Part shown: positions 11,801 to 55,699 of the stretch, piece by piece
How the letters are laid out: every line of letters starts with the position of its first letter
How positions within the stretch are numbered: position 1 is the first letter of the stretch
DNA from: Mizuhopecten yessoensis
Lineage: Eukaryota
NCBI RefSeq assembly: GCF_002113885.1
Contig: NW_018480008.1
Coordinates: forward strand, 1 to 64,000
Length of the DNA stretch: 64,000 nt
Direction: 5' to 3'
Program-made: the position numbers and the translations under genes
The notes under the pieces: model-generated
Told to the model about the DNA's origin: nothing
Databases searched by the model: none
The model's input: only the letters and a program-made list of their open reading frames with translations

Positions 11801-11929
11801 TCATTACGAGGTTCAATGAAGCGGTCACTGGGATATGAACTCAATCTATGTGTATGATACAGCGACTGGATGTAGATATCTAGTATAGGTTTACCGTTAC
11901 GAGATATACTTTCTCGGTGTTGATTCGTA

Positions 11930-28400: not shown

Positions 28401-31400
28401 CCGAGGTAACTTTGTATGTAATAAATGGAATCCCAAACATGCTCTATGATGTTTTGGACTATCTGTAATATAAATATGGCACTGTTGTGACAACTCAGTC
28501 ACCTGAAATAGAAACATCAGTCAAATTGATGTGCAAGCTGTTGGATTGGATGTCTTTTGTTTCTTGCCAGTTATTTAGACGTTTCCCCTGTCGTAAATTT
28601 GTTATTTTGTCGTGAACAATAACATAAATATCCTTTTGATTTATATCAGTTCATATAGAAAATAGTGTTAAATTGATAAATATGCACAAATAAAAAACAT
28701 GATATTAAGTCTTAAACGAAACATTATCAATAATTATTATTGGATTGAATGTCAATCATAATCATGGGTACGTTACAGCTGGAATATAAGTGTGGCACAT
28801 TGAAATTTGGGAAAACGTGGTATATTGGTAATGTATGTTGCTTACTAACAATTTGAATAACGTGGTACAATGACGGTGTATGTAGCTATAATACAGTTAC
28901 AATGTTGTATAATGCAAATGCATATTCTCTATGGTTATATTACAGTTGAAGTGTTGTGGTATACAGAACTACACAGAGTACGGAACGGACGTGGAATCCT
29001 ACCCATCTAGTTGCTTTGTTGTGTATGACGTCACAGGCATCATCGAAAAAACAGTCGATAATCTCTTTACAGTTAGTTCGGCATTGAAAACTATCTTTTA
29101 GCTGCAAATTTGATTTTTTGAATTAAACATTTAACTCATGTCCCCAGTGAAAAAAATCAACATCAAAGGAGAAGAGAGCATACGCATTACTACATCCTTC
29201 ATTGTTACGATAAATCTATTACGTCGACATTATTTATGTCAGTGTCTTGTTTAGTTCGCGGTAGGTTAGTGATATGTATCTTATCATGGATGCGTCGATA
29301 GCCTACTATGGAGTATTTTCAAGCTCCTAATAATTTCGACAGTATCTTTCCTGTGATTTTTGGGTAAAAAAATAATTGTTTTTCGAAGAAAAGTTCGTTA
29401 AAAGTAGTTTTTGTATTAATGAACAATTGACATTATTCATATGTAATAATTGTTACTTAGTGTGAATTGTTTATTGACCTTATTTTGTACCACTACTCGC
29501 CTGTTATGTAGGGAATATATCACTGTAACTCTTTCTTAAATGTGATAAGCGACATCCCTAAGTAAGATATCACTTTTCATTTGTGACGTCACTATTAGAA
29601 CAATTGAAATGCAATATGGCGATAACAAATAAAAGTTAATGGCTACAACAAAAGTTAATTTTGAAACACATTGACTTTTCGATAATGTGATATCGTAAAT
29701 AATTATTGATATTTTCAATACAAGATTTTCTTATACTAAATACTTTTTGTTATAGAATCGTTTGCATGAAAAAATCTTAACTGGCTACAAAATTTCATAT
29801 GAAACAGAAACTCATTTACCATCCTATATATTTATTCACAAATTTGATGTCAACATTTCAATGCACATTGGTCACTATAATATCGTCGTTGTCCTTCAGA
29901 TGAGCTGTCTGACTCAAATGCAGACCTGGTTGAATGACCACATCCCAATATGGTCCTCTGTCATCCTGGTCATTGCTGTGATAGAGGTGGGTAGTGTCAG
30001 CTAAGAACGACTGATGTTTGCTCACAGCTTATCACTTACCTTTGTTCTATTTCATAGTTTGATTGTGGTAAATTGGGGGGATACTGGCTTCTTTAGATAA
30101 TATCAAATTTATTTCTTATACTCCTGGTGACGAAATGTTACAAGATACAATATATATATATCGTCGTTTATGTTTACATGTAAATAAAAGCATAAGAACT
30201 TTATAAAAATACGTTTCATCGTCTAGATGGTATAGTCACATTTGGAGGTCAAAGTTCGATACCAACTTGACAGTTGATAGCTTAATATAATATCTAGACA
30301 GGCGATAGATAATCTATTTTAAACAACATTTTACCATCATAATAGAGAGTGTATACAAGTTATGAATTTATACGATATCAATCATTGATCAACACCACGT
30401 ATGTCTGCAAATAAACCATACGTTAGTACTAATATATACTGTATAACTTGGACGTCTAGAAAGTGATTTAAATGAATTTTAATTGCATCACTTTGGAATA
30501 AAATATGGCAAACAGGCATGTCTTGCAAGACATAATTACATCAATTAAAATAATCATGTTCCTTTTCATTTACAGTCCTTGGGTGGTCTCACTTCCTGTA
30601 TATTCCTACAAAGAGTTCAAAAGAAGCTGAAAGTCAAACCTAATGAGGATGATGACACACAAAATATAGACAAGAAAATGGTGGTCATGGAGACAGGCTC
30701 GTCAAAAGAAAAAGACTTTGTTGATACGGAACATGAAAAAGATGACAAGGGAATAAATGTTCCTGGTTTGATAATTGTGTCCCCAGCCTCAGGACAGGAT
30801 ATAAAAGATAATGCTTATAACGATTACCTCAACGAGAAAAACGATGATTCATCATCAACCAAGACTAACAACGAGGTCAAAGACGAGAATAAATTTGATA
30901 CTGCTTCAAATCCTAGTGCGGAAGGATCGTCGCTATTACTGATTGCTTCTATTTCAGATGAAGAAAAATACATTGAAAAAAGTAAGGATGGTGTGCCTGA
31001 GGATGAGGTTGAGACAATAGTTCTGACACAAATCGGTCAAAGTGACATAACGAACGATAGTAAAGATGAAAAGGAAGACTACGTTTCTAATAATAGTGCT
31101 TCAAATCAGTCTTCTCTTCTGGTCGAGTCTGTAACCAAGGACGAGGCTGTTGTTACGATGCCAACTACGACTGCGCCCGTTCCAGACGAAGTGGAAACAA
31201 TAACCTTAGATCAAATGACACCCTATGATGACAATGACGACAACAATGATCACAAAAACGATGACACCACGTCTAACCGCAGTGGATCTGATCATACAAT
31301 GCCACAGGACGCATGTGCTCTAAACAGAGAAACATATGCCGACAAGGAGCCCGATGCTTTCGAGGAAACCGATGACATCGAAACAGTAGCTCTGACACAA

Positions 31401-31433
31401 GATACTAACTTTGATGTGAAGGGAAATAGATAG
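25455..31433 (+). CDS. Tetraspanin family protein, paralog A (485 aa, ~270-aa acidic C-terminal tail)
   Basis: Nine GT-AG exons in one continuous frame: 25455-25511, 25771-25854, 26935-26983, 27379-27431, 27815-27889, 28337-28405, 28946-29071, 29900-29986, 30576-31433. Hallmarks: TM1 FLLFNFLFLCLGLGLVGF; TM2 ..IIGGIGC; TM3 YVGLMVTLLFLELG with polar E; large loop with IQTELKCCG, PSSC and a final C (MSCL); TM4 ..VIAVIESLGGLTSCIFL. Confidence 0.93.
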
Positions 31434-36588: not shown

Positions 36589-39500
36589 ATGGCTAAATGT
36601 TCATCTAGACAATTTCTCTTTCTGCTGTTTAATTTCCTATTTCTGGTAAGTACACAGCTTTGCATAAACCTGTCATGTAAAAACTAAATCTTTACCCTCA
36701 TTTTTATAAAGTTTCGAAGGAACGATCCTCGCATTGTGATATAAACATACACCGATGTCTTTAATTGAATCCTTTTAACAAGTTCTTTACCACATTACAT
36801 GGTAGAGAACAATGTTATATTTCAAATAGAATGTTGCAATGTAAACTCATACGTCTTAATAAATTGTTTAAATATTATTTAATAATTCCCCCTGTGTACT
36901 AACTGGAGATAACCAAAAGTTGTTTTCACTAATAGTAATATACTAACACTGTAGCATTTTTTTTATTTGAATGATTATTTTAAGAGATAAACATCTCGAT
37001 AATATACCTTAGTCAATTAATTATGTTAAATTTACAGGGTTGTTGTTGTTCAATATTCTAGATGTCAACAGCTATCTTTGTGGTCGAGGATAAGTTGAAA
37101 TGCTAATCCTAATCACGTCTAAATCTGTCCTTACTGTTACAGTGCCTTGGTCTGGGACTGGTAGGATTCGTGGCCTGGACCTTAGCGACCATTCCTACAG
37201 CCAACGAATTCATATCTGGTACACATGTAAGTAAATACAAGCTATAATCATATGTATGTATGTGTGTAGTAAGATATACAGATATGCGTAATTTGTTAAA
37301 TATGTATATTTATTGTACTGGAAACATTTTGAACTTCTGTTACGCATGATACTATTAATTGTTATAACTTCGCAGGTTAAAAAATGTGTGGTTCCAAGAA
37401 AACAACATATCAGCTCGCAATAAATTATCCGGGACTCCTTACAATGCAACCAGATTCATATCAAATTAATAATAACATTGTCTTTCACTAGGAATTTATT
37501 TCATGATAATTCGTTGTACTGGTAATATCAGATATGCATTTTGTCAAACTATAGGACTGTAGGGTGTGGGTAAGAATTATAGGGCCGGTAGAGGTGTCTC
37601 CTAATAGTCTTGAAGAACCCCTGATGCCTTTGTCTGTGTAGACATAATTTATTAGCCAATAGTTATATTCGATTAAACCTGATTGAGCATCTTCCATCTG
37701 GTTACGCACTGATGCAGCTTGTAGAGAACTTGATTAGGTAGCAATACCGATACATGTTTAAACCCCTTTCACATACGTCGCACAACACAACAGGTAAACG
37801 ACAGAAAACTGTGGGAACACATCATGCCGTAGTAGACCATTTTCAGAGAGTTCTGAACACGCTCAAAACGTTTTCGAGTTATATAATTTAATTCTCGACT
37901 CCGTGCTCATTTCGTAGGTCCGTTTTGCAGTGTCCTATAGCTGTGTCACGATAGACCTAGGTATTTAGTACGATTTTTGGGTCATATTAGACCCTCAGAA
38001 TCGTATGAATTTCGAACAATAGTTCTACTATTGTCTCACTTTAAACCAACAACAATTCTACGAATATACTATCTTTGTTCTCCCTTTCTGCTACTGGCCT
38101 AGGATATGAGCAAGCAATAGTCGTGTAAAATCGTACGATTGTTGTAAGAAAACCTATCATCGCAGGGTGTTGTACAAAGGATTTTATACGCTCGCGAGTT
38201 AGAGCGACTAATGTTAAAATGCCGTCCATCTGTCCGTTAACACTTTCTGATATCAAGTTAGTAATTTTATTAAAAAACATTTTAACATTCAAGTTTTATT
38301 TATGTTCTAATGCCCTTTTGATTATTTTATATTAAATTGAAAATAATTAAATTAGTGAACTGACAATGGGGTAAATGAATATCATACGAAAACAAAATTC
38401 GATCTGTTTAGACCAGGGCCCAGGTGTTCAAACGGTGATTAGCTTAATAACTGTTTGACGACATATTTCAGTCTCTAATAATTTTGACAATATGCAAGGT
38501 AAAATCTCAATTTTTGCATGCTTTTTTATTGTGCTAACATATTTGCAATAAAGAAAGTTTTAACCAAGTTATAGCTGTAGTTAAAGATACAATGTAAGAA
38601 AGAAAAAAAAAAATTCCAAAATTTGAGCTAATCACTGACAAAGATAATCACCTTTTGAACAATGTGACCCAGGTTGTTAGATACTGACTCTGATTTGGAG
38701 GCATAGAAAGTATGGGAAATTTTATCAATATTAAAATAATTTATTGTGAGTGGCTCCAAACAATAACTTTTACAACATTCAAGATAAAAAAATAAATAAG
38801 GAAGCAAATACAGTTTGGACTGAGACTTTTGATGTTTGGGATGCTATACTGTTTATGCACTTCGTTTTAAGATATACTAACAGAACCCTGTAATTAACAG
38901 CGAACAAAGGGACAGATGCCGTCGTTATAGAATACGAATTTAAAAATTAAACTGAGTCTATTAAATTGTCATACAAACATGACAATAAGGGAAAAATCGT
39001 ACAAATTCACTGTTCATACTTGCGTCGTGTAAACATAATCAAGTTAATGTGCTAAATAATGTTGCATTCTCTATAGCAGGTTATCTCCCCTATATCATCA
39101 GTGTGTAAGATGGAAACCGGGGACATGGAGTTAACTATTTTATTTTGTGTTGTAGGTAGTCACTTTGACCAGCTTTTGTCTCGGGTTTGTGATCATTATC
39201 ATAGGTAAGTGTTTACTTAGGATACTGTTTGACGCGTGAATTTGTTCCTTCAATACTTCCACATTCATATATGCAATAGAACACACATATACTCATGTAA
39301 CGTACACTAATGTCATATGTTTCGGAGTAAAAAATAAGATAGACCAGACGAGGGACCGCCTACTTCGCAAAAAGAAAGAATGAATTTTCATTGTTTTGTT
39401 GCTATGGATACGTTTTGCATGTTTACTGACGAACTCCTTAATTGATTTTGAGGTATTTTTCATGATAGCAATTTGTATATTACTTTGTCCTGATAACAGG

Positions 39501-42500
39501 AGGTATCGGCTGTGCTGCAGGGTTTTGCAAGGGATTATGTATACTGAAAACGGTGAGTATAATCGACTATATCCTAGTGTTATAGAACACAATATGCTTC
39601 GAAATAAATATAGTCCATTTCCTTAAATAATTATTTTCTTGGTGATATCATTTATTTCCTTGGTGATATCATTTATTTCCATGGTGATATCATTTATCTA
39701 AAGTTATCAATGTGTTATGTTTAAGTACAATTATCCTGATATTACTAATACCAACAAAATGCGTAAATACCATGGACATGCATGGTTTATATACTTATAT
39801 ATTAATATGTAATATAAACATATACATTGCAGTATCGTCTTGCACAGGTATGCTGCCTAGCAAATTAAGCCCAAAGACCAACTTTATCCAAAAAATGTTT
39901 CGCTGAACGAGAGTCGTTGACAAAAAAGAATGAAAATGATTCGGATCGTTAAGTTCTTTGAAATTTTCCAATGAGTTTTTTCTTTACTTCACTTGATCAC
40001 TTTTTGCAAAGTAGCGTTAATGTATAGCTATGATTCCCATGTGTTTATGGTGTGTTATAAACACAACCTTTGTGTTTTTCATGTTACAGTATGCTTTATA
40101 TCTCACAATTTGTCTTTGTAGTATGTCGGATTTATGTTGACCTTGTTATTCCTGGAGCTTGGACTTATATTTTTCATATATGCAGAGAAGTCACAGGTAA
40201 TTTTATCAACAGTTTAGTATGTTAGATGATGATATCATTTTTATCCTACATCCTCATTGGTTAAATGATAATCACGTTTAGGTCGGTGATTTGTGATAAT
40301 GACTCGGTGTTGCTATTTTTTAGAAACACCAGGTCAAATTTTCCTATATATTCACCTCAACAACAGTACAGAATTGATCAAAAACGTTCAGTGTTAAGAA
40401 CTACCAGTAAACTTGAATGACTTGTAGTACTCACCTGTGCATTAAGGTAGGTAAATCTCACACAGAAGGTTAATGTCACACGGTAGGTAAATCTCACACA
40501 GAAAGTTAACATCACACGGTAGGTTAACGTCACACGGTAAGTAAGCGTAACACGGTAGGTTAACGCCATGCAGTAGGTTAACGTCACACGGTAGATACAC
40601 GTCACACTTTTTGTTCTCTCTGTTTTCCAGATACCAAGCGTCATGCTCGACTCCTGGGACGGACTGAATACAGACACACAGTATAAGATTCAAAGCGAGG
40701 TAAATGTTCACTTCACGTTCCGATATAGTGTGCTATTGGGACGCCAAGACAATTATTGTTTTCAAATTTCTTCCCAACGATGATTTTCACGGGCTGCTGC
40801 CAGCCTAATAATGACCGCACTTTTGATATAGATGTCTGCTAACATAAGTTTGATATTTCATCACCTATTTGATATAGTTATAAAACGAAAGCCATCGTAT
40901 CTTAGAATCTTTTTGACTAAAAAGACATTTGTTATAACTTGTACGGCTATGTTGTTACAGTTGGAGTGTTGCGGTATACAGAACTATACGGAGTACGGAA
41001 CGGACGTGGAATCCTACCCCTCTAGCTGCTTTGTTGTGTATGGCGTCACTGGAATCATCGAGAAAACAGTCGATAACCTCTTCACAGTGAGCAAAGCTTA
41101 TATTACACCAATTAAACTATTTTTATCTGGTTATCACTTGTGTTGGCATGAATAACCTTTTATAACCCGAAGGATAAAATAGATATTGGTTTTTTAAACA
41201 ACATTTAACATCAATGATATGAATACAACCATAATGCATGCATGATTTAAGTTGTAATAATCTATTATTTTTTCTTTCTCAACGTATTTCATTAACTTAA
41301 TGTCAACCGGCCAGAGTATGTCGTATTCTATAAAACCGGTTTTGTTATTTCAAGGTGGACTGTCTGACTCAGATGCAGACCTGGTTGAATGATCACGTCC
41401 CCATATGGGTCTCTGTCATCGTGGCCGTTGCTGTAATAGAGGTAGGTGTCTGGACTCTACAGCGGTGTTGGCAAAGAGCGATTGATGAGTTTATCAAAAT
41501 TATATAATAAATATCTATAATGTAGGCGCACAGTAGAAATCATGGTGTCCGTCTCATCGGCCGTCCGTCCACAATGTGTTAGCTTATCTTATCTCATAAT
41601 CCAGCAGCCTTACATTTTTACATTGTTTACATATTGATAAAATATTGCATATGTAGATGTGCAGTAGGGGGCTAAAAGTGCCTAAGGTCGAAATCACAGT
41701 CACTGTTGCTAAATGGGTATCCTTGGCTATTGTGGGTGATAAATACGGCCATACACACAGCAGAGCCCTTGGTTCCATATAAATGATAAATTTCCTGATT
41801 GTTTATCATGTATGGGGGTCATCACTGTATGCATAAAATAATTAAAATAACAGTGATATACTGTAATAGACATGTATTCAATCTGTAAGACTAGTGTGAT
41901 ATCTAATTGCTGAACATGATTTGATAAAGTTGATAACAAAATTGTGCCATACTGTGTGTCATATTCAATTGCCAATAGATCAATATAAGAAATGACGGTC
42001 AAAAGTTACACTACCTATTATATGATAGTTAATGCTGCATGAAATGGAGCGTGAGCGATATTTTACTAGTTCTAAGTGATATACATGTGTCGTCTGTAGT
42101 ATTTTGTTTTTAATAGTATCATAATTTAACACCACGTGTTAGTAAAATCAATCATATCAGTTTGTCATGTAATATAACGATACTAATTAATAATTTCTCT
42201 TCATTAATATACAGTGCTTAAGCGGCCTCGCCTCCTGTATATTCTTACAACGGGTTCAAAAAAAGTTGAAAGTCGAACCTGTCAACGACGATGATGGAAC
42301 AAATGCGGACATAGAAATGGCAGTTATGGAGGCAGGTTCATCGGACGACAGGGTGTCTGATGAGGAAAATCAAGAAAATGACAATAGAATAAACTCTACT
42401 GGTTTGATACTTGTGACTCCTGCCTCGGAACAGGATATAAAGGATAATACGACTATCGATTATCTCAGTGAGAAAAACGTCGATTCATTATCAACGAATT

Positions 42501-45500
42501 CTCAAAGCGAAGTCAAAGATGAAACAGAAGACGTGATCCATTCTCAAGCAACAATTGATGATCCGTCATTGATACTAGTAGCCTCTGTTTCAAATAAAGA
42601 ACCAGCTATACACGAAACCAATGATTCTATTGCTGACAATGAAGTGGAGATCGTCGCTCTGACACAAACGGCTCCTGGAGATGGGCAGGACAATCGAGCT
42701 GACGAAAATAACGACGATTTAAGTTCAAATCAAAATACACCCGAACCGTCTGTGATAGTAGTTGCCTCTATAACCAAAGGTGAAACATCTGTAACAAGAA
42801 AAACAACAGATTCGTCTGATCAGGACAAAGTGGATTCATCAGTCCATGGAGAAAGGGATGAAGATGGTGATTTAAAGGTCGATAACAAAGATAGTGACAA
42901 TATTTCCCAACATAGCGAGCCTGATCGGAGCTTGATCGTGGTCGTCTCTGTAACCAAGGGAGAAACATCAACGGACAAGGAAGCGAACAAAATTGTTGAT
43001 AATGATCAGAGGGATATCGAAACCCTGACTCGGACGCCTCCTTTGGATGATACGAAAGATGCAAAAGATGAAAAAGTTGAAGATAAAAGTACATGCGATC
43101 AGACAATCGTAATAATTGCTTCTGAAAGAGATGACGAGAATTCAGTAAGATCAGAAAATAAAGCGATCGACGAATCTATAGACGAGAAAAGTAACGAAGA
43201 TAAAAACGACACCATGTCTATTCATAGTTTACCTGATCCGACTCTGTTACTGGTTGCCTCGGTTTCAAGGAAAGAAACTACCGTGACAGACACCAAAGAC
43301 GATGCTAATGGCATTGAAGTGGACACAGTCGCAATGGTGCAAATGACACCGAAAGACACGAACAAAGTGGACAGGCAAGACAACATTTCAAATCCCGAAC
43401 CATCCGACCAAAATGTGTTATTAGTCGCATCATTGACAAAGAGAGAAACGGCACAGAAAAACGGTTTTGAAGATACAGTGGGTACAATGTCCGAAGAACA
43501 ACCTGAACTCAAAGTCAAAGAAATAATAAAGGAGAGCAATGACGATCTAAGTTCAAATCCAATAGAACCTGATGCATCATTTATTACGGTAACCTCTCTG
43601 TCACACGCAGAGAATTCTGACGTAAAAGAAGTCACTGATTCTGCAGACAAGGTTGAAGTCGGTTCCGTAGCTCAGACACAAATGAATACAGTCGCCGTTA
43701 ATGACGATGGCAACACTGACATCACCCAAGATATCAATTCCGAACATATTGTCCCCGAGAAATCTTTGGTATTGTTTACTTCTGAACAAGAGATAGAAAT
43801 ATCTGGCAAAAAGGAAACAACTGATTCTTTGAAGGATTATGCAGTAGATACAGCAGTCTTGGAAGAAATGAATGGTAACAGGGAAAAAGAAAACAATGAT
43901 GAAAAAGATGACGTCACAATTTCTATTCATAGCACTTCTGAACCTTCTCTATTATTTGTTGCATCATTGTCAAAGGACTCTTCAGAAATAGTAGACGACA
44001 AGGAAATGGAAACAACTGCTTCGACACATATGGTTTCCGAGGATGTGACGAGCAATATAAAAGACGAAAACGACGACAATTTAAGTTCAAATGAAAGAAC
44101 ATCCGACCTGTCTGTGATAGCAGTTGCCACTGTGACGAATGGAGAAACATGTGGTATAAAGAAAGTGACCGATTCGTCTGTACTAGACCAAGTGGGATCA
44201 GTCCCGGAGGAAATAGAGGAACATGGTGATTTGAAGGACGATCATAAAGATGGTGACAGTATTTCCCGACAAAGCGAGCCTGATCTGAGCTTGGTCATGG
44301 CCGTCCCTGTAACAAAGGGTGACACGGTTGAGGAGGGGAAGATCATTGTTGACAATTATCAGGGGGATATCGCAACCCCGACTTGGACAACTCCTGGGGA
44401 CGAAACAAAAGATGAGAAAAATGATGACACCATTTCCAATAAAAGTACATCCGATCAGGATATGGAATCGATTGTTCCAATTTCAACTACTACAAAAACG
44501 AATTATTCTGAAGAGAATGACGTGAATACAATAACGTCGGCAAGTAAGGCTATCGACGCATCGATGGAGGAGATAAATGATGAAAATAAAGACGACACTA
44601 TCTCTATTCATAGTTTACCTGATCCGACTGTTTTACTGGTTGCCTCAGTTTCAAAAACAGCCGTGGTGGATACTAAGGATACCATTGATAACATTGAGAT
44701 GAACAATATACAAATGGCATCAAGTGATATGAAAGAAATTAACACAGAAGAAAAACAAGCCGACGTTTCCAGTCCCGAACCACCCGACCCGTCTTTGATA
44801 TTGGTCCCATCTGTGACGAAGGAGGAAACGTTACCAGAAAATGAAACTGTTACGGTGTCTGAAGAACAAACGGGGCTCCAAGAAATGACAAAGGAGAGCA
44901 AAGATGAAAGAGACGAAGAAACAAATTCAAATCAAATAAAACCTGATGTGCCATTGCTTATGGCCGCCTCTGTGTCACACGCAGAGAAATCAAATGTGAA
45001 GGAAGCCACGGATTCTGTTGACAATTATGAAGTCGATTCCGTAGCTCAGATACAGATGAATGCAGTCGACATTAGTGAAGATGACAACACTGACATGATC
45101 AAAGACATAAATTCTGATCATATTGTCACTGATCCATCTTTGAAAATGCTCATTTCTGAGAAAGAAGGGGAGATGTCTACGGAAAAGGAAATTTCAGATT
45201 CTTTTAAAGAAGAAGTAGTAGACACAGTTGCCCTGAAACAAATTGAGCATAACACGACAACGGAGAACAATGGTGAAAAAGATGATGACGCCACCATTTC
45301 CATTCAAAGCACATCTGAACCGTCTTTATTTCTGGTTGCATCATTGTCCAATGAAGAATCATTTTCTTATCCAGCCAACAGAGATGCAAAAGACGACAAT
45401 GAAGGAGAGATAGTCGCTCTAAAACGTATATATCCCAATAATGTAATGGATAATGAGAACGACGTAACAGGCGACGATACAAGTTCAAATCACAGTACAT

Positions 45501-48500
45501 CCGACCCCTCTGTGGAAGCAGAAACGTGTGAAATAACGAAAGCAACCGATTCGTCTAAACACGAAAAAGTTGAATCATTTATCCCGGAGGAAATTGAGGA
45601 AAATGGTGATTTAAAGGACGATAACAAAGAAGGTGACAATATTTCCCACCAGAGCACGCCAGACCAGAGCTTGGTTATGGTCGTCTCTGTAACGAAGGAA
45701 TCATCAACGGACAAGGAAGTGAATACAATTGTTGATAATGATCAGGGCGACATCGAAACACCGACATCAACGACCCCTGATGACGTTAAAAAAGATGAAA
45801 AAGATGATGATACCGTATCAAATCAAAGTACATGCTGTGAGGAAATGGTATTGATTACCCCGACTTCCACAAAACAGACACCTTCTGAAAATAAAATAAT
45901 GGATTATACGTCACAGGATGACGTCAATACAGTTACATCAGAAGACAAAGACATGGCAGTGTTGGTAGAGGAAAGAAATTGTGAAAATAAAGAAGACACC
46001 ATTTCTATTCATAGTCTACCCGATCCGACGCTGTTACTGGTTACAACAGAATCAAGGACAGAAACGTCCGTGATGGAAAATAAGGACGCTGTTGATGACA
46101 TTGAAGACGACACAGTAGCATTGGAACAAATGACACCATTAGATGTGAAAGACATTAGCAAAGAGAATAGTCTAGACAATATTTCCAGCCATAATCCATT
46201 CGACCCGTCTTTGATGTTCGTTGCAACTGTGACGCAGGAAGAAACGCTCCCAGAAAAAGAAATATTTTTTAAAGATGCACCAGTAAGAGAGGATGTAGAG
46301 GGAATGGATATCAAAGAAATGATAAAGTATAACAAAGATGAACATGAAAATGACACGAGTTCCACTCCATTAGAACCTGATGTGTCATCGATTAGGGTCG
46401 CCGCTGTATCATACGCTGAAAGGACAGATGTAAACGAACTCACAGATGCTGTTGACAAGTTTGAAGTTAGTTCTGAAGCTCAGACACAGATGAAAACAGC
46501 TGATGTTAAAGACGACAAAAAACCCGACATCACCGAAGACATTCGTTCCGAACACATGATGCCCAATCCACATTTGATAATGCCTAAATCTGAGCAAGAG
46601 GGAGAAAAATCTGGCGAAATGGAAACTACTGATCTTTTGAAAGATGAAGAAGTAGATAGAGCAGCCTTGGAAGAAATGGAACATAACCAGGCGATGGAGA
46701 ACAATGATAAAAAAGATTATGACGTCACCATTTCTGTTCAGAGCACTTTTGAACCGTCTTCATTACTTGGTGCAACATTTTCAAATGCAGAAACGTTTAT
46801 TGAAGAAGGCATTACAGATGTAGTGGGCGACGATGAAGGGGAAACAGGAGCTCTGAATCAAACGGTGCCTGTTGATGGGAAAGACGAAAACAAAAATAAA
46901 ATCATTGGAGAACCTATTTCCTTGACACCTGAAATGCCTTTAATAGTTGCTGCGTCTTTATCAAATGAAGAAACATCTCCTATAAAGGAAACTTCTGATC
47001 GGGGAGCGCAAGACAATGGAGCGATACTCAAAGTGTCGAGAGAAGAGAGTAAAGATAAAAAGGATATCGGCAGCATTTCGCTTCATGTATCACATGACAA
47101 GTCAGATTCGTTAGTACCATACAAAGTGGATACGGCATCATTCGAACAAATGGTCCCACCTGATGTAACTTCTGCGATGGTGGGAATAACAAATTCGAAG
47201 GAAAAAGATGCAAATGTAGCTGTTGAACGAACGGCGATTAATGATGTTCCAACGAATGACTCAAACTCTATGAATATCACATTCGATCCTTCATTGACAC
47301 TGAGCGCCACGGCGAACACTGCCGAGTTATCCGCGCAAGCCAACATGGACGCATTTGCATTAGATCAACCTGATGATGTGAAAGAAGACACAACGAATCA
47401 AACTGAAGACAACACCGTTTCAAAACAAGGTACATCTGATTCCTGTTTGCAACTAGTTGCTTCGATGTCATCATTAGACGAAACATCAGACCAAAATGGT
47501 ATGAACACTATAACTTTGGATCAAACGGCGATCGATGTACCAACTGACATTTCCATTCATAGTCCACCTGATAAGGCTTCGACATTGGAAGCTAGAGTGT
47601 CATTTTCGAAAAAAAATGCAATTAAGGAATCTGAGGATTTTTCAGGGATAGAAGACATGAGCACAGAATCCTCCGACGTGGCAGATGGTGCAAAATTCAA
47701 AATAGCTGATGCCACCACTTCCAATGATAACACACTTACTCCATCCTTGACAGTGGTTCACCCAGTACCAACTGAAGATGCATACAATGTAGAGGAAAAA
47801 TCAGAAAATGGCGACGTAGTCGACATGGACATATTACCGATGGATCAAATAGAAGCCTGTGGTACGGATGAAACAGTTGATGGCCTCTTTTCTATTCAAA
47901 GCACCCATGATTCACCATCAACTGATGCGGACGGCACAAATTCCGATCATGTTGGACATGCTAGATATTTGTCTGTGGTGGAAGATGTCGGCATAGAAGC
48001 ATTAGAACAAGACAAACATAAGAATGTGAAGGACAATTACAAAGATGAGTTTGAAGACGATTCCACTCCTAATCATGGTGCACGTGATCCCTCTTTGGAA
48101 CCAGTTGCTATGGTGTCAGCTAATGAAATGCATGCCACAAATGAAGATGTAGATGCGTCACAAACAGAGATCACTGAAACCATACCGAATACATCAGAAG
48201 AAGAAGACATAGACGCAATGCCTAAAGACCAAACGGAGGACTGTGATGAGTCAGACAGCAGGAAGGAACAAATAGACGAGGACACCAATTCGAACCTTGA
48301 TATTCACGTTATGCCTATGGAAATTATTCCTTTGGTATTAACAAATGTGTCACAAAAAGTTGTCACTGATGCAATACCGTTGGAACACACGGAGCCTAGT
48401 AATCTGAAGTTTAATAACATTATAGAAACAACAAACGACTCAATTTCCAAACAAATAACACTCGATTTAACTTCAGACCTTGTTGCACCGTTACCAATGC

Positions 48501-51500
48501 CGGAATTGACTTCAATCAAGGAATCCGATAACTCGGAAACAGAAAACACGGATGCATTACCGATGCATGAAAAGGAGCCTTGTTATTTAGAAAACGATAG
48601 CAAGGATGTAAAAGACGACGACAACATCATCAATCAAACTTTGAAACAAACTGAGTTGTTGTCAAATGGTGAAAAATCTATCGTAACGGAAAATAAAAAC
48701 ACAACAGTAAATGAAGTTTCGGACACAATAAAATTGGAACAAACGAAGTCTGACGATGTTACAAGAGATAGCAAGGAAGAAATTACCGACGACACTGAAG
48801 ACACACTTGGTTCGTCTTTGGAACTTGGTGCCTTGGTATCAACGAATGAAACATATGCAGTAAATGCTGACGAGTCAAAAATAGAGGTCATAGACGCAGT
48901 TCCGATAAATCAAACTATACATGGTGATATGGATAATGAGACTACAACCAATCCCACTTCGGAAATGATTGCGTCTGTATTAATCCAAGAAAAGTCGTTC
49001 ATAGAAGAAACAGAATCATCAGAAAAAGGCATTATTGGTGCATGTCAGATGGATCAAACGGAGGCTTGTGAAGTGGAAAACAATAACAAGAATGAAGCAG
49101 AGGATACCAACTCCACCATTCAAAGTACACAGGATTCATCTTTGAAACAAGCTCCTTTGGTTTCACCTGATGAAAAATTTACCGTTGCGGAATGTACAAA
49201 CTCAACAGCGAACGAAAATCCAGACACACCAGAATTTGAAAAAACAGATACTGACGTTGTAATGGACGTTAGCGAGGAAAGAGTATCCAAGGATACTCTT
49301 TCCAATCATGGTATGAATGACCCGTCTTTGGAGCTTGATGCTATGGTATCAACAGAAGCGTCAAAACAATTCAGCGGAGCAACGCCGACTGAACAAACGG
49401 CGCCTGGTGGTTTGAAGAACAATGACTATATTGAAACGACAAACGACCCAATTTTCAATCAAATAACACTCGATTCCACTTTAAACCTGGTTGTACCAGT
49501 ATCAATGCCAGAAATAACTTCAATCAAGGAAACCGATAACTCGGATACAGAAGGTACGAAGACATTACCGATGGATGAAAAAGAGCCTTGTAATTTAAAC
49601 AACGATATCAAGGATGAAACAGACTACGACACATTCACCATTCAAACTTTAAAACATTCTGATTTGATATCAACTGGTGAAAATACTACAGAAAAAAAAG
49701 TTCTGGACACAACAATACTAGAACAAATGAAGGCTGACGATGTTACAAGCAAGAAAGAAGAAATGGCCAACGACACTCCTTCCAATGAAGATACACGTGA
49801 TCCGACTTTGGAACTTGGTGAAATTGTATTAGCTAATGAAAATTCCGTACTAAATGAAGTTACTGGTGTGTCAAGAATGGAGCTCGTAGACGCAGTTACG
49901 ATCGAACAAACTTTACCTGGTGACCCGAAGTTCGAGATGGATAATGAAATAACACCCATTCCCACCTCAGGACTAATTGCGACTGTATCAATCCCAGCAA
50001 TAACTTCAATCGAAGTAACAGATTCATCAGAAAAAGATGTAATTGTTGCATGTCAGATGGATGAAACGGAGGCTTGTGTTGTGGAAAACGATAACGGGAA
50101 TGAACAAGAGGACACATTCACCTCTCAGAATTTGTCTTTGAAACAAGCTGTTCAGGTATCAACTGACGAAAAAACTACCATTTTCTCCTCAGAACTAGTT
50201 GCGCCGGTATTGACGCCACACATGGTTTCAATCAAGGAAACTGATTCATCAGAAAAGGAAGGCATGGAGACATTACCAATGGATCAAACGGATGACACCT
50301 TCACCACTCAAACGCTGAAACTTACTGATGAAAAGTATATCATTACAAAAGATACAGCCACAACGGAATTGGAACAAAGGGAGGCAAGCGATGTGACAAA
50401 CGATAACAAGGAAGAAAGTACTGACGGCACTCTTTGTAAAGAAGGTAAGCCTTATCCGTCTATAAAGCCTGTTGCCTTGGTATCAACAAATGACATGATT
50501 TCAATTGATGAAGTTGCTGATACGTCAGTAGGAGAGATCGTTGACACAATACCGATTCTAGATGATTTGGTATCAACTCAGGACACGTTTGCAGTTGTTG
50601 AACAATCAGATACTACAGGCGACGAAGTTCCGGACACAACAGCATTGGAGAAAGGTGAAGGTGGCAATGTAACAGACAGTAAGGAGGTTATTGCCGACAG
50701 CAGTATTTCTGATCATGGTACACATGATCCGTGTTTGGGAATGTCTGCTTTGTTATCCACAGATAAGTCAGAAAAAGAAGTCGCTGGCGCAATACTGACT
50801 GAGCACACGGCGTCTGTTGATCTGCAGCACAACACCGATAACAAAACAACAAACGACACAGTTCCTGACCAAATACCACTCGATCTGAATTCAGAACTGG
50901 TTCTGACGGTGCCAAGTTCAGAAAGTTCAGAAATGCCTACAATAAAGGAAACCGAGTCAATGGAAACATTGCCGACGGATGAAATGGTGTCTTGTCATTT
51001 CGAAAACAATAACAAGGATGTAACATCTGACGACATCTTAACCACTCAAAGTATACAGGATCCTTCTTTCAAACGAACAAATGAAACATCTGTCATGGAA
51101 GAAAATGAAAACATCACAAAAATTGAAATATCGGACACACAAGCATTGGGACAAACAGAGACTCGCCATGTGACGACGGATAATGAAGAAATAGCCGAGG
51201 CCACTATTTCCAATGAAAGATTGCATGATCCGTCTTTGGAAATTGTTGCTTTGGTATCAACTGATCAAACGTATGCAACAGATGCAATTGCTGATAAGTC
51301 AGAAAAAGAGGTCGTTGAACAAACGGTACCTGCTCTTCTGACGCTCGATATCGGTAATGAAACTGCACCCGATCCCGATTCGAAATTGATTGCATCTGTA
51401 TCAATTCAAGTAATGTCTACAGTCGAAGAACCCGATTTATCAGCAAAAGAAAGTATTGGTGAATTACAAATTGATCAAACCGTGGCTTGTGGGGTGGAAA

Positions 51501-54500
51501 ACGATGACAAAGGTAAAAATGAGGATATCACCTTCACTCAAATTACTCGGGATTCATCTTTGAAACAAGCTGCTCTGGTATCAACTGATGAAAAATTTAC
51601 CATTGCCGAACAGACAGACGTCACAGAAAACGAAGATCCAGATACAACAGAACCGGAACAAATGGAGGCTGACATTGTGACAGGCGAAAACAAAAAGGAA
51701 ATGACAGAGGACACTATTTCCAGTCATGGTTTGCATGATCCGTCTTTGGAACTTGATGTTTTGGTATCCACAAAAGAAATCGATGAAATAGCTGATGCGT
51801 CAAAAGAAGAGGCCTTCAGCGCAATACCGATTGAACAAACAGTAACGAGTGATCTTACGATCGACATTCAAACGCAGGACTCGTCTTCGAAACTAGCTGC
51901 TTCGGTATCAGCAAATACATCTAAACTAGTGGAACAATCAGACATCACTAACAACGATCATCTGGTTAAAACAGCATTGGAGAAGAAAACGGATAATGAA
52001 GATGCGACAGACGGTAACAAAGAAGAAATAGCCAGATACTCTTTTGCCAATGAAGACTTTGACCAAACGGTACCTGATGATCTGACGCTCGATATCGGTA
52101 ATGAAACTGCACCCGATTCTCATTCAGAACTGATTGCATCTGTATCAACCCAAGACATCTCTTCAGTCGGAGAAACAGATTCGTCAGAAAAAGAAAGTTT
52201 TGATGCATTACAGATTGATCAAATGGAGGTTTGCGAGGTGGAAAGCAAAAGAGCTAGCGATACTATCACCATTCAAAATACAAAGGATTCATCTTCGAAA
52301 CAAGCAGCCTTGGTATCAACAAATAAAACGTCTTCAATTGTGGAAAATTCAGATACCTCGTACAATGAAGATCTGGAAACAGCAGCACTGGGAAAAACAG
52401 ATGCAACAGATGATAACAAGGAAGAAATAGCCAAGATTACTATGTCTGATCATAATAGGCATGATCCGTCATTGGAATCTAATGTTATGGCATCAAATGA
52501 CGAAACTTCCTCAATCAATGAAGATCCTGATACGGCAAAGAAAGTGGAGGCTGATACATTACCAATTTATAAAACGGCACCAAGTGATTTGGAATCATCT
52601 CTCGAAATGTCTACAATCAAGGAATCAAATACTTCAGAAAAGGAAGCTAAGGACACTTTACCTATGGACCAAGTAGATTCTTGTTATGTGAGAAACGACA
52701 AGAAGGAAGAAACAGCTAACGATTGCATCAACATTCAAAATACTGCAGATTCATCCTTGAAAGCAGATGCTTTGGAATCAGCTGATGAAATATACACAGA
52801 TATCACAAATGAAGCTTCGAATACAGCAGCGTTGGAACAAAATGAAGCTGGTGATCTGACAGACGGTGGCACAGAAAAACTAGCTGACGAAACTGTTCAA
52901 AATGATGGTAAACCTGAGCCCTCTGGTGAACCTAATGCTGTTGTATCAAACAATGAAAGACTTGCAATTAATGTAGATATTGATGCGTCAGAAAACGGAC
53001 ACGTAGACATAACAACGTCAGCAGAGCACGACATGAACGTATTTCCTATGGATCAAATGGAGGCTGGTGCTACGAAACATGTTAGCAAAGATGACTTAGC
53101 TGAGGAAACCATTTCTGCACATGATACACATAATTCTTCTCCGAAGCCAGCTGATTTGGAATCAAATGATGGAGAGTCTACGAATGAGGGCACTATTGAT
53201 TCGTCAGAAAAAGAAGACGTGGACAGCGAAGTATTAGACGATAAGGAGGACAGTGATGTAATGAACTACAGCAAAGAGGAAGCTGCTGAGGATGTTTCAC
53301 TTTCACTAACAACCGATCAAACGCCAGAAGAGGGCACGAATTCTGAAGCAATGGAAATGAATAATGCTGGCCCAATATTACCTCTAGTGCAAGACACTGA
53401 TGAGAAGCTAAAACCAAAAGGAGATGAGATCATTAGTGAATTATTGAATACAATGGAACAACCTATTAAATCTCCAACAAACACTATGACATCTATGGAA
53501 GGAAAACATACCGAAGGAGTTATTGGTAAAGCTGAAACTCGCTCTGTAAAGGATGAATTCGCTCTCGAACAGCCTAACAACCAAGAGTCAGTAGATCTTT
53601 TGTACCGACAAGAGTGCTTAGAAGCAGGACGTAGTCCGTTACCCGAATCTTCATCAAGCCAAATCGAAGAAATGTCATTTAGAAACACAGATGAGAAAAA
53701 GAACGGTCGAAAAGAAGTCCAAGATAAACACGATAAGGGAACTGTTGATGAAGGCAAAAAAATTGAGTCTAAGGAAGAACAGTTCATGCATTTGGAAGGA
53801 GAAGAAAATAAATCAACGATCGATGAACCTGTTGACAAGAGCCACGACCAGATTCAGGACGAAGTGAAACAAATAGAAAAATGTGATGACACTTACAAAC
53901 CAGTTAAATTAGAAGACAAAAATGAATGTCAGGCTATCAGAGATTCAGATCAAACAAACGCAGAGGAAGACAGAACAACAAACAACGTATCAAAACCTAC
54001 TGACAAACAAATATCAAAACCATCAGTGGATCAAAATGAAGATGAAATACAGAAAGATAGCGAAAAAACTTCATTGGATATTCATCCGAAAAATATCACT
54101 AGCAATCAGATTGCAAGTGATTCAGAGGAGGCTAATGGTGCGGAGTTATTGGACGACCATATCAAAGACAAAACTCCTAAAAACGGAGATATTGATGGTA
54201 CAATTTCTTCTTCTTCACTTAAGATTGATTTGAACGAAGCAGGGTGTCAACGAAATGAGTCAGAAAAGGACAATAATTCAGACAATGAAGAATACAAAGA
54301 TGCGTTGGATTATGTACCGGAAGTAGAAGAGTTTACATTGGCACCAGAAGAAAAAAGAGTAAGTGACAAACCAAAGGTCAATCCAAAATCAAAGGGACAA
54401 CAGCGTATAGACATATCACACGGAAAAGGCAAATCAAGCTTCAAAAAGGGGGCTAAGAAAGAAGTGAAGGAAACAGCTACAAAAGGTTCTAAGAAATCAA

Positions 54501-54601
54501 CAACGGAGGCGGAAGGAAAAGGCCCAAAATCGATAGTCAAGGAAAAACAAAACAGTTTCAAACAGAAAGCGGCTTTCGTTAACCGGGTTGTTTGGCGATA
54601 A
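36589..54601 (+). CDS. Giant tetraspanin, paralog B (predicted 4,328 aa; tetraspanin core plus ~4,100-aa acidic repetitive tail)
   Basis: Nine GT-AG exons: 36589-36645, 37143-37226, 39156-39204, 39500-39552, 40122-40196, 40631-40699, 40961-41086, 41355-41441, 42215-54601. Exons 1-8 have the same sizes as in paralog A (57/84/49/53/75/69/126/87 nt). LECCG, PSSC and VDCL motifs are present. Exon 9 begins CLSGLASCIFLQRVQKKLKV, in frame with the 4,111-codon ORF. Confidence 0.9.
38413..38673. mobile_element. MITE with imperfect ~33-bp terminal inverted repeats, in intron 2 of paralog B
   Basis: Left end ccagggcccaggtgttcaaacggtgattagctt. Right end reverse-complemented: cctgggtcacattgttcaaaaggtgattatctt. 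The interior is non-coding and AT-rich. Confidence 0.7.
39632..39698. repeat. 21-bp tandem repeat x3
   Basis: atttccttggtgatatcattt repeated. Confidence 0.7.
40445..40607. repeat. 18-bp minisatellite just upstream of the exon 6 acceptor of paralog B
   Basis: ggtaggttaacgtcacac-type units, ~9 copies. Confidence 0.85.
41545..41830 (+). mobile_element. Possible non-autonomous element fragment with a (ccgt)n seed
   Basis: tgtccgtc..ggccgtccgtccaca followed by a HINE/pearl-like body. Ends not resolved. Confidence 0.35.
42215..54601 (+). CDS. 12,387-nt giant terminal exon of tetraspanin B
   Basis: Acceptor tttctcttcattaatatacag at 42214. No stop for 4,128 codons. D/E/T/S-rich with internal repeats. 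AATAAA at 55517-55522. Confidence 0.9.
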   Translation, partial: CLSGLASCIFLQRVQKKLKVEPVNDDDGTNADIEMAVMEAGSSDDRVSDEENQENDNRINSTGLILVTPASEQDIKDNTTIDYLSEKNVDSLSTNSQSEVKDETEDVIHSQATIDDPSLILVASVSNKEPAIHETNDSIADNEVEIVALTQTAPGDGQDNRADENNDDLSSNQNTPEPSVIVVASITKGETSVTRKTTDSSDQDKVDSSVHGERDEDGDLKVDNKDSDNISQHSEPDRSLIVVVSVTKGETSTDKEANKIVDNDQRDIETLTRTPPLDDTKDAKDEKVEDKSTCDQTIVIIASERDDENSVRSENKAIDESIDEKSNEDKNDTMSIHSLPDPTLLLVASVSRKETTVTDTKDDANGIEVDTVAMVQMTPKDTNKVDRQDNISNPEPSDQNVLLVASLTKRETAQKNGFEDTVGTMSEEQPELKVKEIIKESNDDLSSNPIEPDASFITVTSLSHAENSDVKEVTDSADKVEVGSVAQTQMNTVAVNDDGNTDITQDINSEHIVPEKSLVLFTSEQEIEISGKKETTDSLKDYAVDTAVLEEMNGNREKENNDEKDDVTISIHSTSEPSLLFVASLSKDSSEIVDDKEMETTASTHMVSEDVTSNIKDENDDNLSSNERTSDLSVIAVATVTNGETCGIKKVTDSSVLDQVGSVPEEIEEHGDLKDDHKDGDSISRQSEPDLSLVMAVPVTKGDTVEEGKIIVDNYQGDIATPTWTTPGDETKDEKNDDTISNKSTSDQDMESIVPISTTTKTNYSEENDVNTITSASKAIDASMEEINDENKDDTISIHSLPDPTVLLVASVSKTAVVDTKDTIDNIEMNNIQMASSDMKEINTEEKQADVSSPEPPDPSLILVPSVTKEETLPENETVTVSEEQTGLQEMTKESKDERDEETNSNQIKPDVPLLMAASVSHAEKSNVKEATDSVDNYEVDSVAQIQMNAVDISEDDNTDMIKDINSDHIVTDPSLKMLISEKEGEMSTEKEISDSFKEEVVDTVALKQIEHNTTTENNGEKDDDATISIQSTSEPSLFLVASLSNEESFSYPANRDAKDDNEGEIVALKRIYPNNVMDNENDVTGDDTSSNHSTSDPSVEAETCEITKATDSSKHEKVESFIPEEIEENGDLKDDNKEGDNISHQSTPDQSLVMVVSVTKESSTDKEVNTIVDNDQGDIETPTSTTPDDVKKDEKDDDTVSNQSTCCEEMVLITPTSTKQTPSENKIMDYTSQDDVNTVTSEDKDMAVLVEERNCENKEDTISIHSLPDPTLLLVTTESRTETSVMENKDAVDDIEDDTVALEQMTPLDVKDISKENSLDNISSHNPFDPSLMFVATVTQEETLPEKEIFFKDAPVREDVEGMDIKEMIKYNKDEHENDTSSTPLEPDVSSIRVAAVSYAERTDVNELTDAVDKFEVSSEAQTQMKTADVKDDKKPDITEDIRSEHMMPNPHLIMPKSEQEGEKSGEMETTDLLKDEEVDRAALEEMEHNQAMENNDKKDYDVTISVQSTFEPSSLLGATFSNAETFIEEGITDVVGDDEGETGALNQTVPVDGKDENKNKIIGEPISLTPEMPLIVAASLSNEETSPIKETSDRGAQDNGAILKVSREESKDKKDIGSISLHVSHDKSDSLVPYKVDTASFEQMVPPDVTSAMVGITNSKEKDANVAVERTAINDVPTNDSNSMNITFDPSLTLSATANTAELSAQANMDAFALDQPDDVKEDTTNQTEDNTVSKQGTSDSCLQLVASMSSLDETSDQNGMNTITLDQTAIDVPTDISIHSPPDKASTLEARVSFSKKNAIKESEDFSGIEDMSTESSDVADGAKFKIADATTSNDNTLTPSLTVVHPVPTEDAYNVEEKSENGDVVDMDILPMDQIEACGTDETVDGLFSIQSTHDSPSTDADGTNSDHVGHARYLSVVEDVGIEALEQDKHKNVKDNYKDEFEDDSTPNHGARDPSLEPVAMVSANEMHATNEDVDASQTEITETIPNTSEEEDIDAMPKDQTEDCDESDSRKEQIDEDTNSNLDIHVMPMEIIPLVLTNVSQKVVTDAIPLEHTEPSNLKFNNIIETTNDSISKQITLDLTSDLVAPLPMPELTSIKESDNSETENTDALPMHEKEPCYLENDSKDVKDDDNIINQTLKQTELLSNGEKSIVTENKNTTVNEVSDTIKLEQTKSDDVTRDSKEEITDDTEDTLGSSLELGALVSTNETYAVNADESKIEVIDAVPINQTIHGDMDNETTTNPTSEMIASVLIQEKSFIEETESSEKGIIGACQMDQTEACEVENNNKNEAEDTNSTIQSTQDSSLKQAPLVSPDEKFTVAECTNSTANENPDTPEFEKTDTDVVMDVSEERVSKDTLSNHGMNDPSLELDAMVSTEASKQFSGATPTEQTAPGGLKNNDYIETTNDPIFNQITLDSTLNLVVPVSMPEITSIKETDNSDTEGTKTLPMDEKEPCNLNNDIKDETDYDTFTIQTLKHSDLISTGENTTEKKVLDTTILEQMKADDVTSKKEEMANDTPSNEDTRDPTLELGEIVLANENSVLNEVTGVSRMELVDAVTIEQTLPGDPKFEMDNEITPIPTSGLIATVSIPAITSIEVTDSSEKDVIVACQMDETEACVVENDNGNEQEDTFTSQNLSLKQAVQVSTDEKTTIFSSELVAPVLTPHMVSIKETDSSEKEGMETLPMDQTDDTFTTQTLKLTDEKYIITKDTATTELEQREASDVTNDNKEESTDGTLCKEGKPYPSIKPVALVSTNDMISIDEVADTSVGEIVDTIPILDDLVSTQDTFAVVEQSDTTGDEVPDTTALEKGEGGNVTDSKEVIADSSISDHGTHDPCLGMSALLSTDKSEKEVAGAILTEHTASVDLQHNTDNKTTNDTVPDQIPLDLNSELVLTVPSSESSEMPTIKETESMETLPTDEMVSCHFENNNKDVTSDDILTTQSIQDPSFKRTNETSVMEENENITKIEISDTQALGQTETRHVTTDNEEIAEATISNERLHDPSLEIVALVSTDQTYATDAIADKSEKEVVEQTVPALLTLDIGNETAPDPDSKLIASVSIQVMSTVEEPDLSAKESIGELQIDQTVACGVENDDKGKNEDITFTQITRDSSLKQAALVSTDEKFTIAEQTDVTENEDPDTTEPEQMEADIVTGENKKEMTEDTISSHGLHDPSLELDVLVSTKEIDEIADASKEEAFSAIPIEQTVTSDLTIDIQTQDSSSKLAASVSANTSKLVEQSDITNNDHLVKTALEKKTDNEDATDGNKEEIARYSFANEDFDQTVPDDLTLDIGNETAPDSHSELIASVSTQDISSVGETDSSEKESFDALQIDQMEVCEVESKRASDTITIQNTKDSSSKQAALVSTNKTSSIVENSDTSYNEDLETAALGKTDATDDNKEEIAKITMSDHNRHDPSLESNVMASNDETSSINEDPDTAKKVEADTLPIYKTAPSDLESSLEMSTIKESNTSEKEAKDTLPMDQVDSCYVRNDKKEETANDCINIQNTADSSLKADALESADEIYTDITNEASNTAALEQNEAGDLTDGGTEKLADETVQNDGKPEPSGEPNAVVSNNERLAINVDIDASENGHVDITTSAEHDMNVFPMDQMEAGATKHVSKDDLAEETISAHDTHNSSPKPADLESNDGESTNEGTIDSSEKEDVDSEVLDDKEDSDVMNYSKEEAAEDVSLSLTTDQTPEEGTNSEAMEMNNAGPILPLVQDTDEKLKPKGDEIISELLNTMEQPIKSPTNTMTSMEGKHTEGVIGKAETRSVKDEFALEQPNNQESVDLLYRQECLEAGRSPLPESSSSQIEEMSFRNTDEKKNGRKEVQDKHDKGTVDEGKKIESKEEQFMHLEGEENKSTIDEPVDKSHDQIQDEVKQIEKCDDTYKPVKLEDKNECQAIRDSDQTNAEEDRTTNNVSKPTDKQISKPSVDQNEDEIQKDSEKTSLDIHPKNITSNQIASDSEEANGAELLDDHIKDKTPKNGDIDGTISSSSLKIDLNEAGCQRNESEKDNNSDNEEYKDALDYVPEVEEFTLAPEEKRVSDKPKVNPKSKGQQRIDISHGKGKSSFKKGAKKEVKETATKGSKKSTTEAEGKGPKSIVKEKQNSFKQKAAFVNRVVWR

Positions 54602-55699
54602 CACTGGTAAGATAATAATATTGACTATCATTCTTACCAGATGAAGGTTTTCTATGAAAATGGATATATTGACAGACTGCTGCAATACAAATCTGTGAGC
54701 ATTTCTGATGTGTCAGGAACTAAACAAACTCAATGAGACAAAAAGAAGTGAAAAGAAATTATGTCATATACTGAAGTTTTTAAAGTTGATGAAACAGTAT
54801 CGCTACAAAGTAAATTAAACCATTTTGATATCGTGGGGATGTTAGCAAATTTTGTATGAGTGCTTAACATCATGTGTTTATTTTTCACCTGTGTTGATAA
54901 TTACGTTTGTGTTCAATCCAAGGATAAAACGAAATATACGACCGCGAAGGGAAAATCGGAAAATGACCTCCGGGCTGTAACGACTCAAATTGTTATCAAC
55001 TAGAGACGTTATCAATAGGATCATCGTCTTTATCATGCAATGTGAGTTTATGAACTATAGTGAAGAGAATGGCATCATATTACTGTTTATCCCCAACAAG
55101 GGAAACCAAAGAATTAACTGTGTTATTATTTAGGTTAGATTATCTATTAACGTAACATCCCATTATTATCTTTAAGCATTAGCCATTAAAAAACATTGAT
55201 ACCTTTGATAACAAGTGATTTATATAGAAGATTAGAAATAGGATACGAGTATATCAAGTCTATTTCACATCATCCGTAGGTGTTTTCTTTAGTTGTTTAT
55301 ACTTACAATGTAATTTCGTTTCGTGCCTCCCGGATTGTATTGATGTACAAAACTGATATTTAGTATGTTTTTTTTCCCGATAAACAGCTATGTATTAAAG
55401 GATTTATTGTACGTGTTTGTATAATATGCAGTTATCATACTACTATTGTTTATATATAATTAGTTTTATTGCTAGCCCTGTCATCTTATTGTTTACACGA
55501 CGTCGGTTTTATAACCAATAAATGAAGCGGTTCGCGTGTATCATATTAAATAACCAAATAGGAGCACAATCTGGAAATAATTTATTATCTTGATCTAGAC
55601 AATATTTCTTAAACGACTATTGAAATGTTATTTTAGTATTACCTGTTCTCTTTTGTTATGTTACCTCAGTGTGGTTGTTTTGTTGCCACAGTAAATTTT

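Follow-up and report, generated by a model that had tools for sequence, protein, structure and literature searches.

The window analysed here, a 64,000-nucleotide stretch of the Mizuhopecten yessoensis genome, carries a multi-exon gene as a tandem pair (n=2 by DNA self-comparison of the window), and a genome search found only these two copies in this species. Copy 1 (25455..31433, + strand) is a tandem paralogue of 485 residues with the same tetraspanin core and a short acidic tail. Copy 2 (36589..54601, +), a long-tailed tetraspanin gene modelled at 4,328 residues, is made up of nine coding exons (36589-36645, 37143-37226, 39156-39204, 39500-39552, 40122-40196, 40631-40699, 40961-41086, 41355-41441 and 42215-54601, all +), which join into a single open frame with GT..AG at every intron. 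The giant last exon of 12,387 nt (42215..54601, +) encodes the end of the fourth transmembrane segment (TM4) and an acidic, repeat-derived tail of ~4,100 residues, and lies in a reading frame of 4,135 residues from stop to stop (42194-54601, +). The database protein for copy 2 (P0002; M. yessoensis LOC110442163, 4,294 residues) is identical to our model from TM4 onward and omits both TM2 exons (39156-39204 and 39500-39552), which are intact in the window and present in the six other core-bearing proteins. A short intronic piece at 38411-38448, with high-depth matches and loose ends in several runs, is a dispersed repeat.

On its sequence, the core of copy 2 is a tetraspanin. It shares with the family (PF00335), whose hallmarks as given in the accessible text of PMC2278132 were used for the assignment, four TM segments, a CCG plus two further cysteines, a cysteine near TM4 and basic residues after TM4. 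The Pfam model was matched above its curated cut-off of 32.1 bits by both LOC110442163 (51.3 bits) and the Ylistrum protein (P0008, 92.8 bits); hydropathy peaks at 9, 48, 82 and 192 mark the four TM segments in the full-length Ylistrum protein, the large loop of the copy 2 model reads CCG...PSSC...C, as it likewise does in the relatives, and the nearest solved sequences to the core are those of Tspan7, CD9 and CD53. The tails of three species contain no hydrophobic 19-mer above 1.32, indicating no further TM segment after TM4, and N-glycosylation sequons occur at shuffle level in two of the three tails. The last exon begins within TM4 and contains the entire tail, so that production of the four-TM form would put the tail in the cytosol, the placement that family knowledge of four-TM topology (PMC2278132, in its accessible text) also implies; the three-TM form of the LOC110442163 model, if real, could leave the tail facing outward. 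Just beyond the membrane both paralogues share a conserved block (GLILVTPASEQDIKDNTTIDYLSE, 42392..42475, +, in copy 2; the copy 1 equivalent lies at 30750-30840, +), identical to Ylistrum at 22/28 positions, whose ending I[KQR]DNxxxDYL[SN] is found in all seven core-bearing proteins. The scallop protein differs from other tetraspanins in its predicted C-terminal tail of ~4,100-4,750 residues, against fungal tails called long at 66-110 residues in the accessible part of PMC2278132, and in its distribution, with relatives of the core found by core searches in scallops only.

Core searches recovered five shorter proteins (among 1,465 candidates) and one further giant (among 507 candidates), all from scallops, and a tree of seven cores, from which Pecten P0009 was left out because it has no core, separates the long from the short copies with support of 100/98. 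Short copies, as members of such a pair, are present in four scallops (485, 633, 741 and 834 residues) and carry acidic repeats without an FFAT-like site or basic tip, their best FFAT sites scoring no better than 3.5 or 4; copy 1 itself has neither an FFAT-like site nor a basic tip, and a search for decayed tail repeats after its stop gave no match at E 0.01. When the last 135 residues of copy 2 were used for a full HMMER search against 1.84 billion representatives, three proteins came back, including the query's own. The Ylistrum balloti match (P0008, E 2e-11) is a full tetraspanin of 4,968 residues whose full-length model was made independently, and the Pecten maximus match (P0009, E 2e-8) is a fragment of 4,084 residues without a core; its accession and that of the Pecten short copy are four numbers apart, which suggests that the long copy was split in modelling. 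A word-based tip search among proteins of 2,274-7,237 residues retrieved one of 697 candidates, the query protein itself, a blank that reflects the sensitivity limit of the method since the Ylistrum and Pecten proteins fall in the same size range. The Argopecten long copy (P0005) is 1,391 residues long and has no tip; its last ~50 residues are basic and look as though its own repeat had been read out of frame. For that gene the tip may sit downstream, and this copy is neither support for nor a counter-example to tip conservation.

Up to the LAPE block the tail of copy 2 carries a net charge of -620 over 4,033 residues, and the last 81 residues (K20 R4 D2 E5) carry +17, in agreement with the preliminary description, which had reported an abrupt switch to a basic region after ~4,000 acidic residues and put that region at ~85 residues, where about 80 are measured. 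The features it placed at the end of the tail, namely DNNSDNEEYKDALDY (54269-54313), KPKVNPKSKG (54368-54397), RVVWR (54584-54598) and the stop to 54601, were all located as described in frame 42194-54601 (+). The repeat structure of the tail rests on DNA self-matches because protein self-BLAST of the tail gave no rows. Pfam assigned the tail and tip to no family, and a TX13_rpt assignment of Pecten P0009 was dropped, with no passing stretches and a probably compositional origin. Neither SxIP nor LIR patterns gave a match aligned across all three tails, and YxxPhi and di-leucine patterns were absent from the last 170 residues of all three proteins. At 0.38 nm per residue the contour length of the tail is ~1.5 micrometre, and polymer scaling laws give a coil radius of ~19-28 nm.

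The linker drifts in both sequence and length among species and its frame is kept. In contigs of other samples, the listed indels are a multiple of three in 4/4 cases inside the last exon vs 1/8 outside it, and the substitutions in the frame number at least 30, the 30 listed comprising 24 residue-changing and 6 silent changes and no stops. These patterns imply that the linker sequence drifts as the frame holds, which fits the earlier proposal of a long linker presenting a compact tip. One contig from X4, over 52088-55640, is unchanged between 53031 and 55119. Coverage of the last exon by RNA is sparse, with seven raw reads, all in run X8 (the four other raw RNA runs gave none), and short contigs in X1 and X3, whose RNA status is guessed; one contig from the X1/X3 set spans 54288-54522 with 11 differences at a depth of 2.3. 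No splice joint, that of core and tail included, was seen in the reads of eight runs, in which coverage was too low; the models of the relatives agree with a join of core and tail. A GTAAGT donor-like site lies at 54359-54364 (+), where the conserved block gives way to the basic segment, and its use was not seen in the reads.

The best three-way window of the whole tail is the conserved tip block SDNEEYKDALDYVPEVEEFTLAPEE (54278..54352, +). In the three-way alignment its consensus, SDxEEYKDAL[DE]Y[VL]PE...EEF[TI]LAPE, is identical at 19/28 columns, set against a median of 3 and a 99th percentile of 9 (of 28) for windows across the tail, a background that is partly non-orthologous because the repeats expanded separately in each species; the 300 residues immediately upstream of the block hold 0-3 identities per 20. 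Compared with Ylistrum alone the block scores 22/28, level with the TM4 window and the membrane-proximal block (median 8). This measure of tip conservation covers three related species of one family. Within the block, an FFAT-like core E-Y-K-D-A-L-D (54290..54310, +) is preserved as EYKDAL[DE] in all three species and is preceded by a conserved S-D-x-E (54278-54289, +), which we take to be a CK2-type pattern; more broadly, E-[FY]-x-D-A-x-[DE] follows an acidic flank in 3/3, with flank charges of 2.5, 4.0 and 4.5. In a single-sequence structure model the tip comes out as disordered (pTM 0.13, mean pLDDT 61), EEYKDAL being given a short helix of low confidence. The ESM Atlas offered no usable match for the tip.

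Beyond the block, a Lys-rich basic segment that is predicted to be disordered (54353..54598, +) has counterparts in the other two species, with net charges of +17, +16 and +23 over 81, 79 and 134 residues in M. yessoensis, Ylistrum and Pecten, respectively, so that charge is kept and length is not. It runs into a second conserved patch, ExKGxKxxxKxxQSxxKxKxxxxNxxxW[KR]-stop (54512..54601, +), which is the second-best window (10/28 three-way identity) and whose shared end is only NxxxW[KR]. The expectation in the preliminary description that the terminal motifs would be conserved while the linker diverges is thus borne out for the FFAT-like site (3/3) and for the composition of the basic segment (3/3), and fails for RVxW (1/3).

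Scoring the site with FFAT matrices, as had been proposed, gave a divided result. With the 2012 matrix (Table S2 of PMC3261905, as available, with 2 suboptimal elements as its cut-off), the site scores 3.5, 2.5 and 2.5 in M. yessoensis, Ylistrum and Pecten, above the cut-off; it ranks best in the first, second in Ylistrum and tied in Pecten, and 254, 52 and 41 of 300 shuffled tails contain a site as good. With an adapted 2020 matrix, consisting of the Table EV4 core of PMC7705450 with position 4 altered to accept D/E and with the upstream tract only, the scores are 1.5, 1 and 1, the site is the best in 3/3 tails, and 33, 19 and 14 of 300 shuffled tails do as well. A cut-off of '<3' is used for later-style scores in the available text of PMC8306308, and the scores published in PMC9213790, as far as its accessible text gives them, imply Y2 = 0 (ORP4L), K3 = 1 (protrudin) and a flank of 2.5 = 1 (CERT); calibrated on such examples, the site would score ~2/1/1, within that cut-off.

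Published VAP ligands provide close precedents. The Chlamydia protein IncV is a direct VAP ligand through EYMDALE (PMC9213790, accessible text), from which the Ylistrum EYKDALE differs by one residue, and in the available text of PMC9213790, PMC8759595 and PMC3261905, protrudin binds VAP through EFKDAIE with a score of 1.0, ORP4L has Y2 with a score of 0.0, and ACBD5 has VYCDSME. In the accessible part of PMC3261905, K3 is described as highly detrimental and Y2 as rare, and Y2 and K3 occur together in none of the published FFAT examples compared from the available texts. A candidate receptor is encoded in the same genome: a VAP exon of M. yessoensis matches VAPA structures with E 4e-22 and carries the FKVKTTAPKRYCVRPNSG and HKFMVQ stretches that form the FFAT-binding signature. 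A second MSP-domain gene besides VAP, presumably MOSPD2-like as judged by eye (L003, G000:C3345), is also present in the genome and represents another possible FFAT receptor. As sequence evidence, the FFAT-like motif is modest when taken by itself and good evidence for a candidate VAP site when combined with its conservation.

We put at about even the chance that the conserved tip is an FFAT motif that binds VAP, through which the giant-tailed tetraspanin would tether the ER on a long, length-tolerant leash. In the proposed mechanism the tetraspanin would sit in its own membrane, likely the plasma membrane or an endosome, with the polyanionic tail extending into the cytosol, and the acidic flank, which phosphorylation of the conserved Ser may strengthen, would dock on the VAP MSP domain together with Y2, D4 and A5. 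The basic end, with its +16 to +23 charge and terminal Trp, may lean on acidic lipids and add grip in the way that of Ist2 does (PMC13286939, accessible text). The last ~110 residues could thereby form a short bridge to the ER on a polyanion of ~1.5 micrometre contour length, and the overlapping LxxVxE described below may let PP2A-B56 compete for or switch the contact. More tentatively, and at well short of even, we propose the full form of this model, an ER tether that binds VAP directly and is carried on a leash of ~4,000-5,000 residues, in which the FFAT/B56 site and the basic lipid-binding end would act as a switchable mini-bridge that reaches ER beyond the normal contact distance.

Several observations weigh against the VAP tether. 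FFAT cores bind in extended form, so that the low-confidence helix over EEYKDAL is a mild point against it, and the invariant K3, L6, Y8, P10-E11 and EEFxLAPE are not accounted for by FFAT. The scores exceed the 2012 cut-off, and shuffled tails match the site in the adapted matrix at the frequencies given above. The linker of 4,100 residues is far longer than a contact gap of 16-34 nm needs (PMC13286939, accessible text). In addition, the LOC110442163 model lacks the TM2 exons, the core-tail joint is in no read of the eight runs, and the comparison involves three species of one family.

The residues left over by FFAT could belong instead to a longer docking element, in which the 25-residue block, perhaps as a short amphipathic helix with Y, A, L and V on one face plus EEFxLAPE, engages a non-VAP partner and its FFAT likeness is incidental. 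The conservation does extend well beyond the seven-residue core, a helix is modelled over EEYKDAL, and the second half of the block is poor as a tandem FFAT, with Leu at position 4 and a rank below fifth in every tail. However, the helix comes from a single-sequence, low-confidence model, the tip matches no known family, and the series S-D-x-E-E-aromatic-x-D-A-x-acid closely tracks proven VAP ligands (PMC9213790, accessible text); we consider such a partner unlikely.

Some of the leftover residues bear on a second alternative, that the block is mainly a candidate docking site for PP2A-B56 and that the tail recruits this phosphatase and not PP1. An LxxVxE (LDYVPE, 54305..54322, +) overlaps the FFAT core, and with the wider pattern applied here, L-x-x-[IVL]-x-E, the matches LDYVPE, LEYLPE and LDYVPE in M. 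yessoensis, Ylistrum and Pecten, each with acidic neighbours, are the only ones aligned in all three among the 8, 4 and 9 matches per tail. Docking of B56 would account for L6, [VL]9 and E11, which FFAT does not. Nevertheless, matches occur in the tails at chance frequency (8.2, 10.4 and 9.0 per tail in shuffles), the SDxEEYKDA portion is left unexplained, the I of the LxxIxE consensus (PMC7108865) is replaced by V or L, and the helper basic patch, N-terminal in known ligands in the accessible text of that paper, is C-terminal here. As the main function of the block, B56 docking is therefore quite unlikely in our estimate, and it is compatible with FFAT as a shared, switchable site: the FFAT core and LxxVxE share two residues, and because of this overlap VAP and B56 would probably exclude each other.

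A third alternative moves the working part to the basic end, which would bind acidic lipids or microtubules, with the acidic tail acting as a spacer or brush of the kind known from MAP2 and giant ankyrins. The net charge of +16 to +23 in three species and the second conserved patch ending in NxxxW[KR] are in keeping with such a role, as is the disordered tail of Ist2, which ends in a polybasic motif (PMC13286939, accessible text). Against it, the acidic block shows roughly twice the conservation (19 vs 10 of 28), SxIP is absent from the last 170 residues of all three proteins (0/3) and KxGS is found in 1/3, and we regard this assignment as distinctly unlikely.

Recruitment of PP1 by the terminal RVVW (54584-54595, +, within the C-terminal patch), as suggested in the preliminary description, fits the loose docking pattern [RK]x0-1[VIL]x[FW] in this species only (1/3) and is rejected as very improbable, because the non-conserved RVxW is absent from both relatives, with the protein ends reading NRVVWR here and NPNAWK and NPLAWK in the relatives, and because 2,063 of 10,000 shuffled 85-residue tips (20.6%) carry the loose pattern, which is chance level; two stricter PP1 consensus patterns were found in 0/3 proteins. 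Equally hard to credit is that the tip is not in the real protein and is an annotation artefact or unexpressed read-through, for which the very few RNA reads, the unseen splice joint, the GTAAGT at 54359 and the tip-less end of the Argopecten long copy at 1,391 residues could be cited, against a 12.4-kb open frame with indels in frame only, a protein-like pattern of conservation in three species, with conservative exchanges both before and after the donor-like site, and the independent 4,968-residue full-length model in Ylistrum.

The proposed VAP tether would share with the FFAT tethers IncV, protrudin, ACBD5, PTPIP51, Kv2.1 and STARD3 the build of a membrane protein in which a disordered stretch in the cytosol bears a non-canonical core after an acidic/Ser tract, and its core lies one residue from that of IncV and two or three from that of protrudin. 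It differs from them in its tetraspanin anchor, in a putative motif ~4,000 residues from the membrane, in the combination of Y2 and K3, and in the basic end that follows. A single giant exon, an acidic repeat spacer and a compact basic end are also features of giant ankyrins and MAP2/Futsch, which have one very large exon, an acidic, repeat-rich spacer and a compact basic end; no sequence match to these was found, and the scallop protein has an integral membrane anchor and a tip without conserved SxIP/KxGS. Yeast Ist2, as described in the accessible text of PMC13286939, is similarly multi-pass, with a long disordered tail that exceeds the contact gap, a short central docking motif and a polybasic C-terminus, but its anchor is in the ER, from which ~360 residues span the distance to the plasma membrane, whereas the scallop anchor would probably be on the opposite side, with a tail more than ten times longer and an ER link via VAP; we claim no homology.

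Among the records listed from openly accessible journals, we came across no report of a tetraspanin that binds VAP directly, and no paper on this gene or protein by title or abstract start, six gene and protein identifiers retrieving none. A tail that exceeds 4,000 residues and has a tip under selection lies outside the usual picture of tetraspanins as small membrane organisers. Why tether linkers far exceed contact gaps is an open question for Ist2 in the accessible text of PMC13286939; if the VAP tether is real, the scallop pair would offer an extreme natural test of linker length, with the adjoining short-tailed, tip-less paralogue as a control, the reach of which is limited to scallops, from which alone the protein is known.

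Elsewhere in the window, minus-strand ORFs of 189 and 324 residues lie within 8295-19596 (-), a region that contains similar exon-like segments at 13485-13760, 16039-16368 and 19120-19596 with 68-71% DNA identity; Pfam gave no match for the three scanned. ORFs at 59552-63714 (+), which we assume to form an Hsp70-12 (HSPA12)-type gene, have a weak Pfam match to an actin-like ATPase (E 0.0087) and no PDB match. Tandem arrays occupy 1-1984, 17233-19251, 34062-35096 and 55765-56277, with units of 76, 31, 26 and 35 bases, respectively.
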